From Escherichia coli (lineage in GTDB: Bacteria > Pseudomonadota > Gammaproteobacteria > Enterobacterales > Enterobacteriaceae), in NCBI RefSeq assembly GCF_017348835.2, contig NZ_CP071375.1: a DNA stretch of 64,000 nucleotides; one strand, 5' to 3'. Under the pieces are notes generated by a model. That model was not told where the DNA came from. It made no database searches and was given only the letters and a program-made list of their open reading frames with translations. This document shows, piece by piece, positions 11,483 through 18,541 of the stretch. Made by a program: the position numbers and the translations under genes. Position 1 is the first letter of the stretch. Each line of letters starts with the position of its first letter.

Positions 11483-11512
11483 AAAAAATGCCAGCCCGAA
11501 GGCTGGCATTAT
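11483..11512. terminator. Bidirectional rho-independent terminator between ygcG (+) and eno (-)
   Basis: Perfect hairpin TGCCAGCC-cgaa-GGCTGGCA (11489-11508) flanked by A6 upstream and TTAT downstream, giving a U-tract on the eno strand. Confidence 0.7.
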
Positions 11513-11532: not shown

Positions 11533-12846
<1,314 letters not shown>

Positions 12847-12918: not shown

Positions 12919-14571
<1,653 letters not shown>

Positions 14572-14783
14572 TTAGGTTGAAAAGACGATGGAATAACCAG
14601 GACGGGAAAGCAGTATACCCGAACATGACCTGTGCCACAAACTTTCATTATCCCTCCTCTTCGCCAGCGCACTATTGAAATCAGGAGTGAGAAAATAGCC
14701 CCTTTGGGGTAAATGTTTTTGACGCAAATCAAGCGCTTGTCATTTAAAAAATGACACAAATGGCGCTTGACCGCGTAATTCCC

Positions 14784-15575
14784 TTAGAGATCAATTTCCT
14801 GCCGTTTTACCTGTTGCCAGACTTCTTCCATTGTTTCGAGGTCAACACCTGTCATTTCCAGTCCACGCGCGGCAACAATACGCTCCACTTCGCGAAAACG
14901 ACGCTCGAATTTTTCGTTCGCTTTTTGCAATGCGATTTCCGCTTTTGTCCCTAAATGACGAGCCAGATTGACCGTGGCAAACAGCAGATCCCCCATTTCC
15001 TCCTCCAGTTTAGCCTGGTCGACAACAGCCTGCCGCGCTTCGTACATCACCTCGTCGATCTCTTCGTAGACTTTATCGACTACCGGACCAAGCGTCGTCC
15101 AATCGAAGCCAACGTTGGCGCAACGTTTCTGGATTTTTTGCGCACGCATTAAAGCCGGTAAACTACGAGGAATATCGTCCAGCGCCGAATGCTGCGCTTT
15201 CTGCGCGCGCTCTTCGGTTTTGATTTGCTCCCAACGGGCAAGCACTTCACTACTGTTTTCGGCAGAACTGTCAGCAAAAACATGCGGATGGCGACGCTCT
15301 AATTTATCGCTAATCGCAGCGCAAATATCATTAAAGTCAAAGCGCCCTTCTTCCTGAGCCATTTGGGCGTAAAACACCACCTGGAACAGCAGATCGCCGA
15401 GTTCACCGCGCAGATCGTCAAAATCTTCACGGGCGATGGCGTCCAGCACTTCGTAGGTTTCTTCAAGGGTGTAAGGCGCAATGGTGGCAAATGTCTGCTC
15501 TTTATCCCACGGGCAGCCGTTTTCCGGGTCGCGCAGGCGCTGCATAATAGTGAGCAAACGGTCGATTTGATTCAT
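14784..15575 (-). CDS. mazG: Nucleoside triphosphate pyrophosphohydrolase MazG
   Basis: 263-aa ORF MNQIDRLLTIMQRLRDPENGCPWDKEQTF... Confidence 0.95.
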   Translation of the reverse strand: MNQIDRLLTIMQRLRDPENGCPWDKEQTFATIAPYTLEETYEVLDAIAREDFDDLRGELGDLLFQVVFYAQMAQEEGRFDFNDICAAISDKLERRHPHVFADSSAENSSEVLARWEQIKTEERAQKAQHSALDDIPRSLPALMRAQKIQKRCANVGFDWTTLGPVVDKVYEEIDEVMYEARQAVVDQAKLEEEMGDLLFATVNLARHLGTKAEIALQKANEKFERRFREVERIVAARGLEMTGVDLETMEEVWQQVKRQEIDL

Positions 15576-15645: not shown

Positions 15646-15981
15646 CTACCCAATCAGTACGTTAATTTTGGCTTTAATGAGTTGTAATTCCTCTGGGGCA
15701 ACCGTTCCTTTCTTCGTTGCTCCTCTTGCCCGCCAGGCGATACTTTTTACCTGATCAGCTAACGCTACGCCATCACGTTCCTGACCGGATAAAACAACTT
15801 CGAACGGATATCCTTTTGATTGCGTTGTACAAGGAACACACAGACACATACCTGTTTTGTTGTTGTACATGAAAGGACTCAGGACAACAGCTGGACGATG
15901 TCCAGCTTGCTCGCTACCTTTTGTCGGGTCAAAATCAACCCAAATCAGATCGCCCATATCGGGTACGTATCGGCTTACCAT
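15646..15981 (-). CDS. mazF: Type II toxin MazF (mRNA interferase, ACA-specific endoribonuclease)
   Basis: 111-aa [39 protein letters not shown]... Confidence 0.95.
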   Translation of the reverse strand: MVSRYVPDMGDLIWVDFDPTKGSEQAGHRPAVVLSPFMYNNKTGMCLCVPCTTQSKGYPFEVVLSGQERDGVALADQVKSIAWRARGATKKGTVAPEELQLIKAKINVLIG

Positions 15982-16229
15982 TACCAGACTTCCTTATCTT
16001 TCGGCTCTCCCCAGTCGATATTCTCGTGGAGGTTTTCCGGCGTGATGTCGTTGACCAGTTCAGCAAGCGTAAATACGGGCTCTTTACGCACTGGCTCAAT
16101 AATTAATTTGCCATCCACCAGGTCAATCTTCACTTCATCATCAATATTCAGATTGAGCGCCTGCATTAACGTAGCCGGGATCCGCACCGCCGGTGAATTT
16201 CCCCAACGCTTTACGCTACTGTGGATCAT
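15981..16229 (-). CDS. mazE: Type II antitoxin MazE
   Basis: 82-aa [34 protein letters not shown]...; stop overlaps mazF start by 1 nt. Confidence 0.95.
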
Positions 16230-16255
16230 AACCCTTTCCTCAAACCGCTATCATA

Positions 16256-16292
16256 TGTAGATACAGTATATATCAATCTACATTGTAGATAC
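16256..16292 (-). promoter_or_regulatory. mazEF promoter-operator region (palindrome TGTAGAT-N13-ATCTACA plus second TGTAGATAC copy)
   Basis: Inverted repeat at 16256-16282 and direct repeat of TGTAGATAC at 16284-16292, immediately upstream of mazE; matches the described autoregulated mazEF operator. Confidence 0.5.
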
Positions 16293-16306
16293 GAGCAAAT
16301 TTCGGC

Positions 16307-18541
16307 CTAACTCCCGTGCAACCGACGCGCGTCGATAACATCCGGCACCTGGTTGAGTTTACCCAGCACGCGACCCAGCACCTGCAGGTTGTAAATCTCA
16401 ATGGTCATGTCGATGGTCGCCAGTTGCTGTTTGGTGTCGCTACGGCTGGCAACGCCAAGCACGTTCACTTTCTCATTGGCGAGAATGGTCGTGATATCAC
16501 GTAACAACCCACTACGATCATTAGCCACCACGCGGACCACCAGCGAATATCCGGCGGAGTAGCTCTCGCCCCATACCGCGTCAACAATGCGTTCTGGCGC
16601 ATGGGAGCGCAGTTCCGCCAGTTGTTCGCAATCGGCGCGGTGTACTGAAATACCGCGCCCCTGGGTAATGAAGCCGACAATCTCATCTCCAGGAATCGGC
16701 TGGCAGCAACGCGCGATGTGGTGCATCAGGTTACCGACACCTTCAACCACCACACGACCGTTATCTTTACTGCGGTTTTGCGGCGTGTAACTTTTTTGCT
16801 GAAGTTGCTTCAGCGCGGCGGCGTCCTGCTCTTCGGCACTCGGCTTATTAAATTGCGATTGCAGGAAGTTCACCATCTGATTGAGACGGATATCCCCGCC
16901 ACCAATCGCCGCCAGCAACTCGTCGACATCATTGAAGTTGTAACGCGGCAGCAGATGTTTTTCTGCTTCTTTCAGGCTGATCCCCAGATGTTCCAGCTCG
17001 TCGTCAAGGATTTGCCGCCCAGCCAGAATGTTTTTGTCACGGTCCTGTTTACGGAACCAGGCGTGAATTTTCGAACGCCCACGGCTGGTTGTGACGTAAC
17101 CGAGGTTTGGGTTTAACCAGTCACGGCTGGGGTTCGGCTGTTTCTGGGTGATAATTTCAATCTGGTCGCCCATCTGCAGCTGGTAGGTGAACGGCACAAT
17201 GCGCCCGCCAATTTTTGCCCCGATGCAGCGGTGTCCGACATCACTGTGGATGTGGTAAGCGAAGTCCAGCGGCGTTGATCCCGCAGGCAAATCAACGACA
17301 TCACCTTTCGGCGTAAAGACATACACCCGGTCGTCAAACACCTGACTACGTACTTCGTCGAGCATTTCGCCGGAATCAGCCATCTCTTCCTGCCACGCAA
17401 TCAGTTTACGCAGCCAGGCAATCCGGTCTTCATGTCCCGAACGTGCGCCGCCAGCAGCCGCGCCCTCTTTATATTTCCAGTGCGCAGCAACACCCAACTC
17501 TGCATCTTCATGCATCTGTTTGGTGCGGATTTGGATCTCAACGGTTTTTCCACCCGGCCCCAGAACCACGGTATGAATAGACTGATAACCGTTTGGTTTC
17601 GGGTTAGCGACGTAATCGTCAAACTCATCCGGCAGGTGGCGATAGTGAGTGTGCACTATCCCCAGTGCGGCATAACAATCCTGTAAACGCTCGGCGACAA
17701 TACGTACCGCACGCACATCAAACAGCTCATCGAAGGCGAGGTTCTTTTTCTGCATTTTGCGCCAGATGCTGTAGATGTGTTTCGGACGACCATACACTTC
17801 AGCTTTAACGCCTTCAGCTTTCATCTCAGCGCGCAGATGACCGACAAACTCTTCGATATAGTGTTCGCGGTCGAGACGGCGTTCATGCAACAGTTTTGCG
17901 ATGCGTTTGTATTCGGTCGGGTGGAGATAACGGAAGCAGTAATCTTCCAGCTCCCATTTCAGTTGCCCAATCCCAAGACGGTTTGCCAACGGCGCGTAGA
18001 TATTGGTGCACTCTTTTGCCGCCAGTACGCGTTCATCTTCCGGCGCATCTTTTACTTCACGCAGATGAGCAATACGCTCCGCCAGTTTGATGACCACGCA
18101 GCGAAAATCATCGACCATCGCCAATAACATCCGGCGAACGTTATCGACCTGTTCGGAGGAAACAGAATCAGTGTGCGTCGCTTTCAGTTGGCGGATCGCC
18201 GCCATATCACGCACGCCGTGAATAAGGTTAACGACCGACTTACCGACGCTCTCACGCAGCACATCTTCGCTGACTACGTTGGCATCCGCCAGAGGGAAAA
18301 GCAGCGCCGCCCGCAGCGTGTCAATGTCCATACTTAATGTCGAGAGGATCTCCACCATCTCAACACCACGCCACAATAACAGACTGGCATCCGGATGCCC
18401 CTGCGTCTGTTGCAGACAATACGCCCAGGTTTCGGCTAAGCACTCACACGACTTCTGGCTGGTAATACCCAGACTTGCGATCCATTTTTCCGGATCAAAT
18501 TCACCAGCCTTATTGATATGTGCACTTCTTACCGCAACCAT
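16307..18541 (-). CDS. relA: GTP pyrophosphokinase / (p)ppGpp synthetase I
   Basis: 744-aa ORF MVAVRSAHINKAGEFDPEKWIASLGITSQKSCE... Confidence 0.97.
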   Translation of the reverse strand: MVAVRSAHINKAGEFDPEKWIASLGITSQKSCECLAETWAYCLQQTQGHPDASLLLWRGVEMVEILSTLSMDIDTLRAALLFPLADANVVSEDVLRESVGKSVVNLIHGVRDMAAIRQLKATHTDSVSSEQVDNVRRMLLAMVDDFRCVVIKLAERIAHLREVKDAPEDERVLAAKECTNIYAPLANRLGIGQLKWELEDYCFRYLHPTEYKRIAKLLHERRLDREHYIEEFVGHLRAEMKAEGVKAEVYGRPKHIYSIWRKMQKKNLAFDELFDVRAVRIVAERLQDCYAALGIVHTHYRHLPDEFDDYVANPKPNGYQSIHTVVLGPGGKTVEIQIRTKQMHEDAELGVAAHWKYKEGAAAGGARSGHEDRIAWLRKLIAWQEEMADSGEMLDEVRSQVFDDRVYVFTPKGDVVDLPAGSTPLDFAYHIHSDVGHRCIGAKIGGRIVPFTYQLQMGDQIEIITQKQPNPSRDWLNPNLGYVTTSRGRSKIHAWFRKQDRDKNILAGRQILDDELEHLGISLKEAEKHLLPRYNFNDVDELLAAIGGGDIRLNQMVNFLQSQFNKPSAEEQDAAALKQLQQKSYTPQNRSKDNGRVVVEGVGNLMHHIARCCQPIPGDEIVGFITQGRGISVHRADCEQLAELRSHAPERIVDAVWGESYSAGYSLVVRVVANDRSGLLRDITTILANEKVNVLGVASRSDTKQQLATIDMTIEIYNLQVLGRVLGKLNQVPDVIDARRLHGS

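Follow-up and report, generated by a model that had tools for sequence, protein, structure and literature searches.

In class II FNR promoters, examples of which are those of narG, nirB, yfiD and dmsA, the FNR box lies at -41.5 and IHF sites are found nearby; at class II promoters RNA polymerase makes contact through its alpha-CTD on the upstream side of the activator, and IHF wraps approximately 35 bp of DNA. CTP synthase, the product of pyrG, is essential, and to our knowledge the transcriptional control of the Escherichia coli enzyme is poorly described. Described elements of other kinds also resemble parts of the region upstream of pyrG. Stem-loops at the 3′-ends of Rho-terminated mRNAs have been described by Dar and Sorek 2018 (PMC6061677), and E. 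coli thyA and lacZ reporters contain quasi-palindrome hotspots, for which a template-switch mechanism was described by Klaric, Perr and Lovett 2020 (PMC7202029).

The mazG-pyrG spacer considered here is located in a 64,000-nucleotide stretch of an E. coli genome (contig NZ_CP071375.1; the window), in which the gene order on the minus strand is relA-mazEFG-pyrG-eno (Table 1). The gene coordinates confirm the placement of a palindrome downstream of mazG and upstream of pyrG on this strand, as given in the original prediction. The spacer is 227 bp long. Among 5426 complete E. coli genomes, 5425 have it in (near-)identical form, always single-copy and chromosomal, and 3636 of 5422 carry its 58-bp hairpin region unchanged; a dispersed repeat of the REP/BIME or ERIC type was ruled out, since the element occupies one place per genome (5425 and 5422 genomes) and gives one match in the window. 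Window coordinates are converted to those of MG1655 (NC_000913.3) by adding 2,895,110, and U00096.2 coordinates are 1,978 lower. A MazG-based scan of species-representative genomes yielded 80 loci, from which the mazG-pyrG spacers were extracted and aligned, in a first alignment (A1) and in one of 43 Enterobacteriaceae spacers (A2). A search of positions 14000–15500 against Rfam with a permissive E-value returned no match, and the literature search on this spacer returned nothing beyond two FNR ChIP studies (Myers 2013; Federowicz 2014).

Table 1. Features of the mazG-pyrG region, in window coordinates.
Feature	Position	Strand	Details
eno	11533–12831	minus	
pyrG	12919–14556	minus	ATG 14556–14554
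Upstream ORF (uORF), 31 codons	14553–14648	minus	Shine-Dalgarno (SD) GAGGAGG; ATG 14648→14646
P1 start	14606	minus	49-nt pyrG leader
Main pyrG promoter P1	14612–14640	minus	-35 TTGTGG 14640→14635; 17-bp spacer; -10 TATACT 14617→14612
Putative P2 -10, TATTTT	14697→14692	minus	predicted start ~14684–14685
Small CCCCAAAGGGG hairpin	14699–14709	minus	in the spacer between FNR box and -10-like element
FNR box	14719–14732		TTGACGCAAATCAA on plus strand = TTGATTTGCGTCAA in pyrG sense (14732→14719); 9/10 versus TTGAT-N4-ATCAA
Full predicted stem-loop, mazG-sense RNA	14776→14722	minus	~22 bp; 6x1 internal loop
IHF core	14727–14739	plus	AATCAAGCGCTTG, exact match to WATCAANNNNTTR
Outer arm, pyrG-proximal	14729–14736		TCAAGCGC on plus strand; GCGCUUGA in mazG-sense RNA
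Inner perfect inverted repeat (core)	14738–14756		TGTCATTT-AAA-AAATGACA; arms 14738–14745 and 14749–14756
Outer arm, mazG-proximal	14763–14770		GCGCTTGA on plus strand; UCAAGCGC in mazG-sense RNA
mazG	14784–15575	minus	stop (TAA) 14784–14786
mazF, mazE, relA		minus	same strand as mazG and pyrG

The pyrG-proximal end of the palindrome is a composite FNR/IHF binding site, for which FNR occupancy and IHF enrichment in vivo are known from published ChIP data. In Table S6 of Myers 2013 (PMC3688515), the box TTGACGCAAATCAA is entered for the gene pyrG (start 2907851 in U00096.2, which is window position 14719; ln p -13.29, PatSer score 14.73), with the notes that it lies at an FNR ChIP-seq peak and overlaps IHF ChIP-chip enrichment; the alignments had revealed the identical box independently. 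The peak was called by all four peak callers (Table S5), in a dataset from which peaks shared with the delta-fnr control are excluded. In the same study, pyrG showed no FNR-dependent change of expression in anaerobic glucose medium, was recorded with “three known TSS” (Table S9), and its peak was placed under “other potential regulatory mechanisms,” with no known co-regulator. An Fnr ChIP-chip region at 2907727–2908047 was assigned to eno and pyrG under nitrate and scored as “Repression” by Federowicz 2014 (PMC3974632; Table S4). The ChIP summits (2907811 and 2907750) are located 46–107 bp pyrG-ward of the FNR box, nearer to P1. Three FNR-like matches are present in the window versus 3.0 expected, and seven IHF cores versus 2.6 expected; chance alone would yield motif matches of such quality in 64 kb, and the evidence therefore consists of the conservation pattern together with the published binding.

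In the 43 Enterobacteriaceae, no variation is seen in the FNR half-sites TTGAT and TCAA, the N4 between them is TTGC, TTAC or TTGA, and position 10 of the box is G or A, with a perfect TTGAT-N4-ATCAA box in two loci (one metagenome-assembled genome and strain LSJC7). The IHF-specified bases are also invariant in these species (columns 48–50 and 55–60), which accounts for the invariant CAA outside the FNR box, as this is the TTG of the IHF core. All of the invariant columns (CAA, TTGATTT, TCAAAA.CATTT and TA.TTTC) are on the pyrG side, and AAAACATTT is invariant as well. The pyrG-proximal outer arm (columns 51–58) is invariant or at least 90% conserved, except for column 54 (70–90%), and overlaps both an FNR half-site and the IHF core; the latter also shares bases with the FNR box and with the palindrome core, of which it covers the first 2 nt, and an A/T-rich tract, AAATGTTTTT, is positioned 6 nt upstream of it. 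Of the palindrome as originally described, the FNR box and IHF core share only the GC-rich extension on the pyrG side and 2 nt of the core. The mazG-proximal arm was rejected as the site of a second FNR box (TTTTTTGCGATCAA, 8/10 in the Enterobacter group; AATTACGCGGTCAA, 4/10 in E. coli; not conserved) and of an IHF core, for which the W and TTR positions fail.

The palindrome itself is real. Its core, originally predicted with an AAA loop, is exact in both position and sequence, its two arms being 100% complementary over 8 bp around a loop of 3 nt (8-3-8). The GC-containing extensions proposed on both sides are present and form a perfect 8-bp pair, TCAAGCGC/GCGCTTGA, which is asymmetrically placed (1 nt versus 6 nt from the core); the proposed interval of 14731–14766 clips both of these arms. 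In mazG-sense RNA, the predicted stem-loop begins 8 nt past the mazG TAA stop and folds at -31.9 kcal/mol in a 111-nt context (z = -3.4; 1 of 200 shuffles as good) and at -24.2 kcal/mol in a 70-nt context (z = -3.9). When both strands of the 64 kb were folded in sliding segments of 60 nt, the composite hairpin ranked in the raw top 1% and was the 8th most stable locus when adjusted for GC content. Perfect 8-bp inverted repeats with loops of 0–8 nt occur 33 times in the window, with each of several overlapping registers within the same hairpin counted individually, versus ~9.7 times in first-order Markov simulations; hence the 8-bp core by itself is unremarkable, and it is the composite structure that stands out.

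A GC-containing stem-loop immediately after mazG is reminiscent of intrinsic terminators, but differs from these in that no U-tract directly follows the main stem, as originally noted; the sequence after the stem reads CAAAAACAUUUA. It is only 25 nt beyond the stem, past the small CCCC/GGGG hairpin (Table 1), that a U-rich run (CUAUUUUCU) is found; for this small hairpin, 60% of cells are paired across species, with a few compensatory changes. An intrinsic terminator was therefore rejected, given a stem lacking a U-tract, a scan with no minus-strand terminator and a sole U-rich run that follows a separate 4-bp hairpin; the only terminator-like site in the consensus scan is on the plus strand, at this small hairpin.

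Conservation among close relatives, by which the original prediction proposed to judge the palindrome, does not extend to the core. The core is perfect only in Escherichia, being invariant in the sampled E. coli genomes and E. albertii, and its central pair (columns 34–46) is standard in four of the 43 Enterobacteriaceae, among which the two half-sites and their symmetry are not kept. Outside Escherichia, the arms read TGTGATTT and AAATRACA, which leaves a mismatch of the G.G or G.A type; the corresponding region is TGTGATTT...AAATAACA in Citrobacter, Salmonella and Klebsiella and TGTGATTT...AAATGACA in Enterobacter, Raoultella and Leclercia, the central pair being mismatched in Citrobacter, Salmonella, Klebsiella and Enterobacter, and unrelated sequence occupies the position in Buttiauxella, Cedecea, Siccibacter and Mangrovibacter. 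An operator at which a dimeric transcription factor recognizes TGTCATTT-N3-AAATGACA and controls pyrG or mazG is suggested by the perfect, intergenic 8-3-8 dyad and its invariance in E. coli and E. albertii. This reading is nevertheless very improbable, because no genus but Escherichia has the dyad, perfect 8-bp dyads would arise several times in 64 kb through chance alone, and the geometry is neither that of FNR nor that of CRP, the E. coli sequence having TGTCA in place of TGTGA and lacking a TCACA half. A CRP site was rejected separately, as relatives carry TGTGA-N6-AAATR, a good left half alone, and E. coli has TGTCA. The comparison thus largely refutes the operator reading of the core, the perfect form of which is specific to Escherichia. 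What holds of the operator originally suggested is that FNR and IHF sites adjoin and overlap the palindrome; it belongs to this adjacent, overlapping and already published FNR/IHF site and not to the core, which is not conserved as a dyad.

Variation within E. coli indicates how such a core could arise. In six of 5426 genomes (strain 8479 and five others), GCG[CCATTTGTG]TCA is changed to GCG[CTTG]TCA, a complex replacement of 9 nt by 4 nt rather than a simple deletion, which gives a perfect 17-3-17 palindrome by making the arm on the mazG side exactly reverse-complementary to that on the pyrG side. At least three haplotypes bear the variant, and its carriers are separated by as many as 41 SNPs over 6 kb of flanking sequence. 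One carrier, MB06233, differs by 2 SNPs per 6 kb from K-12, a non-carrier, and by 18–41 SNPs from the other carriers, which indicates that the event has recurred. A recurrent templated change is the signature of a quasi-palindrome template-switch hotspot, and points to a process that is still active at the site. The Escherichia-specific G to C change that perfected the core would be of the same kind, and the core is probably a mutational by-product. As at the thyA and lacZ hotspots (PMC7202029), an imperfect repeat has been perfected from the template of the other arm, repeatedly and on different haplotypes; unlike those cases, the mazG-pyrG example comes from natural variation among wild genomes instead of the reversion of a selected reporter. 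All of the SNPs in the sampled E. coli genomes are located in the mazG-proximal arm/outermost helix or the internal loop, and none in the FNR/IHF end.

The main promoter of pyrG, P1, is strongly conserved: its hexamers are invariant with a spacer of variable sequence, and the TTGTGG-17-TATACT arrangement is retained out to Pectobacterium and Lonsdalea, together with the start at 14606 and the entire leader of 49 nt. The primer for the “entire 5′ UTR” pyrG construct of Adams 2021 begins with CCCGTC, in agreement with this start. Upstream of P1, the TATTTT element is also conserved, with T90, A91, T93–95 and C96 invariant in the 43 Enterobacteriaceae, and the centre of the FNR box falls at -40.5 to -41.5 relative to the start predicted from this element (putative P2). 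The spacing between the FNR box and TATTTT is constant in all of the loci (at least 43), including nine species that carry insertions of 56–126 bp between this block and P1. The insertions appear ERIC-like in at least three lineages (ATGTGACTGGGGTGAGTG-type core) and extend the box-to-P1 distance from ~120 to 176–245 bp, leaving the box, its flanks and the TATTTT spacing untouched. In Erwiniaceae, a GTGAY-N4-RTCAA box is followed at the same spacing by TAnnnT (GGTAnnCT), the sequence between them being unalignable, and the box-to-P1 spacing is 110.5–115.5 in the three measurable loci. Because the box-TATTTT spacing is kept both despite the insertions and in Erwiniaceae, P2 is favored over long-range action on P1, and the FNR box most likely drives an upstream class II promoter of pyrG, the predicted P2. 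A sigma-70 consensus scan found no promoter at P2; the scan is uninformative here, as it missed P1 as well. No match for a start in the pyrG upstream region was found in the supplements of Ettwiller 2016. An antisense class II promoter on the same FNR box was rejected, its -10 position reading CACAAA. As a separate observation, TTGACG-16/17-(T/C)ATTTA is plausible as an antisense promoter in relatives and poor in E. coli.

Transcripts that begin upstream of P1, and only these, contain the uORF, the TGA stop codon of which overlaps the pyrG ATG (ATGA). This uORF has 30–31 codons, owing to an in-frame 3-nt indel, in most core Enterobacteriaceae, and the pyrG entry in Supplementary file 3 of Adams 2021 is tagged “uORF.”

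The pyrG site shares with class II FNR promoters a 14-bp box matching 9/10 that is occupied in vivo, conserved half-sites around a variable spacer, a poor -35, a TAnnnT element at class II distance and IHF enrichment. It differs in that the P2 start is predicted from sequence and that the IHF core overlaps the FNR box instead of lying further upstream. In addition, a stronger, FNR-independent promoter, P1, is located 79 bp downstream of P2, and the box doubles as the downstream arm of a long quasi-palindrome located after a stop codon. The reported effects on pyrG, which are none (Myers 2013) or repression (Federowicz 2014) and not class II activation, are a further difference and count against the P2 model, as does the P1-ward displacement of the ChIP summits. 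On balance, we lean toward the reading in which the conserved end of the palindrome is the FNR/IHF site of a predicted class II promoter, P2, and the core is a product of templated mutation. The FNR box would then be the activator site of a pyrG promoter with TATTTT as its -10 and a predicted start at ~14684, and IHF may compete with FNR or bend the DNA at the box. The A/T-rich centre of the palindrome would span roughly positions -54 to -72 relative to P2 (centre -62, 14747), within the reach of IHF wrapping, and could serve as alpha-CTD-contacted or IHF-wrapped DNA, the role of alpha-CTD being one that we infer from textbook class II geometry. At the RNA level, mazG read-through transcripts would fold into the stem-loop lacking a U-tract, which may protect mazG 3′-ends. 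The FNR/IHF account leaves a gap, namely the conserved mazG-proximal arm ATCAAGCGC and an outer helix that is kept in ~32 of the 43 species.

This gap is addressed by the main rival, which we regard as doubtful: the stem-loop would be a 3′-UTR hairpin of the relA-mazEFG mRNA that blocks 3′-5′ exonucleases and sets the mazG 3′-end. Since the stem-loop lacks a U-tract, it would not terminate transcription itself; a hairpin of this kind would act after Rho-dependent termination or processing further downstream, with the C/U-rich CUAUUUUCUCACUCC as part of a Rho loading region, a proposal that we hold with the same reserve. The position of the hairpin 8 nt past the stop codon and its GC-adjusted stability rank agree with such a function, and the prediction of the outer helix persists in genera with an unrelated interior (Mangrovibacter, Cedecea and Pseudescherichia). 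In 38 of 43 species, the fold of the sense strand is the more stable of the two (median -17.7 versus -14.6 kcal/mol for the antisense), and many one-sided changes are of the A-U/G-U or C-G/U-G type. The mazG-proximal arm, (G/A)TCAAGCGC, is conserved in most genera, more so than its flanks, but is freer to vary than the pyrG-proximal arm, and no DNA motif explains it; its wobble-preserving changes hint at selection at the RNA level. The class to which such a hairpin would belong is that of Dar and Sorek 2018, and the mazG element resembles those stem-loops in being stable, devoid of a U-tract, near the stop and followed by C/U-rich, G-poor sequence. It is unlike them in that one half of the stem doubles, in the DNA, as a protein-binding site and covariation support is lacking: pairs with two-sided changes number 7 versus 7.0 in shuffles, 75.1% versus 73.8% of cells are paired, RNAalifold returns the self-complementarity of the FNR box alone and not the helix, and the single-species folds have a median z of -1.6. 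Furthermore, the Term-seq data of Adams 2021 contain no 3′-end at 2909667–2909893 under any condition, although mazG is absent from that dataset and may be below its threshold. For a processing site, which the original prediction offered as the alternative to an operator, these data likewise show no 3′-end in the spacer. The pyrG-proximal arm is already accounted for by the FNR/IHF site, and templated mutation could keep the arms alike without selection. A protective 3′-hairpin is in any case compatible with FNR/IHF function at the DNA level.

Somewhat less probable, and in our view unlikely, is action of the box on P1: FNR bound at -119.5/-120.5, together with bending by IHF, would repress or modulate P1, and the palindrome would be mere flanking DNA. 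The “Repression” scored for eno-pyrG by Federowicz 2014 fits this arrangement, as do the ChIP summits shifted toward P1 and a distance from the box to the P1 start of 119.5–120.5 in most species. Against it, the nine insertion-bearing species keep the box and TATTTT together, which argues for the nearby element, rather than P1, as the partner of the box, and Erwiniaceae preserve the box-TAnnnT spacing with a different spacing to P1. A more elaborate variant of the P2 reading, to which we give little credence, is an anaerobic switch from P1 mRNA, for which initiation would be weak, to P2 mRNA, on which translation of pyrG would be coupled to the uORF. An oxygen-responsive P2 would produce a long-leader mRNA with a well-translated 31-codon uORF, preceded by the GAGGAGG SD and ending in a stop that overlaps the pyrG AUG (AUGA); such a switch would alter total pyrG mRNA little, which would explain the null transcriptomics. 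The quasi-palindrome could then have a dual use, as the alpha-CTD/IHF region of P2 in DNA and as the mazG 3′-hairpin in RNA, its shape being upheld by recurrent template switching.

Overall, the element is an ordinary, neatly layered intergenic region, with nothing surprising in kind, and may be viewed as an FNR/IHF module of class II type combined with a quasi-palindrome hotspot and, possibly, a 3′ stem-loop. For scans based on sequence only, it carries the caution that a perfect dyad may be a mutational by-product situated beside a real operator. The site provides a clean natural case of a quasi-palindrome that has been perfected repeatedly in wild E. coli. What is new here is that the FNR box, the IHF core and a -10-like element at fixed distance are invariant across Enterobacteriaceae and have a counterpart in Erwiniaceae, which turns a previously unexplained ChIP peak at pyrG into a testable promoter model.

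The main pyrG promoter, P1, gives rise to a short leader that hardly varies in the alignment of spacers, all the way from Escherichia out to Pectobacterium and Lonsdalea, and contains a weak Shine-Dalgarno sequence. Judged from this alignment, its conservation is far above what a coding-adjacent spacer would need, and near-invariance combined with a weak Shine-Dalgarno sequence suggests a so far unrecognised function for the 49-nt leader. A Rho-dependent 3′ end has been mapped 36 nt inside the pyrG ORF (MG1655 2909630; Adams 2021).

An upstream ORF (uORF) with a strong Shine-Dalgarno sequence ends at pyrG, its TGA stop codon overlapping the pyrG ATG (ATGA). The P1 start lies inside this frame, and the uORF is therefore present on longer transcripts only. 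Escherichia, Citrobacter, Salmonella, Klebsiella, Enterobacter, Kosakonia and others retain it with 30–31 codons, the difference being a 3-nt indel that preserves the frame. In Buttiauxella and Cedecea it carries a frameshift, and in Siccibacter and Pectobacterium it lacks an ATG. The pyrG entry of the Term-seq dataset carries the tag "uORF" (Adams 2021, Supplementary file 3).

Features of the pyrG region and of the wider window
Feature	Position	Strand	Description
pyrG uORF	14553-14648	minus	31 codons, upstream of pyrG; Shine-Dalgarno GAGGAGG
pyrG 5′ UTR	14557-14606	minus	49-nt leader
Terminator-like site	14698-14720	plus	small hairpin GCCCCTTTGGGGT then AAATGTTTTT; terminator scan
Variant allele	14757-14765		complex replacement; loci L083 and L089-L094
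aMEF (ameF, b4844)	15941-16340		400-nt antisense RNA; MG1655 RefSeq annotation
Insertions	conserved block to P1		56-126 bp; loci L014, L018, L024, L025, L028, L037, L019, L046, L047
Top GC-adjusted stable 60-nt hairpins of the window	~28631, ~5326, ~11486, ~2926, ~51186	minus	folding

Several compared spacer loci carry insertions between P1 and the conserved block (the pyrG-proximal FNR box, the overlapping IHF core and TATTTT), directly downstream of the predicted start of P2, the putative upstream FNR promoter. The insertions of Citrobacter wls619, Kosakonia and K. pneumoniae resemble ERIC/IRU elements or their remnants, with a ATGTGACTGGGGTGAGTG core; ERIC elements typically reside in transcribed spacers. 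The terminator-like site on the plus strand could stop antisense transcription from pyrG; it shares its DNA with the spacer of the proposed P2. Elsewhere in the window, aMEF is antisense to mazE-mazF and the relA-mazE spacer, and the stable hairpin near 11486, just downstream of eno, is probably the eno terminator.

In 6 of 5426 E. coli genomes, a complex replacement converts the quasi-palindrome, the imperfect inverted repeat of the mazG-pyrG spacer, into a perfect 17-3-17 palindrome. The allele occurs on at least three flanking haplotypes, and one carrier and K-12, which is without the replacement, are separated by 2 SNPs per 6 kb; together these observations indicate recurrent templated mutation at the quasi-palindrome.

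The genome-wide ChIP-seq study of FNR (Myers 2013, PMC3688515, Table S5) places peaks at many nucleotide-metabolism promoters besides pyrG, namely carA, pyrD, pyrL, upp/purM, guaB, purA, purR, nrdA and nrdD, and the box in carA (TTGATTTACGTCAT) is very similar to the pyrG FNR box (Myers 2013). The number of such promoters with FNR peaks hints that oxygen is linked more broadly to nucleotide synthesis.
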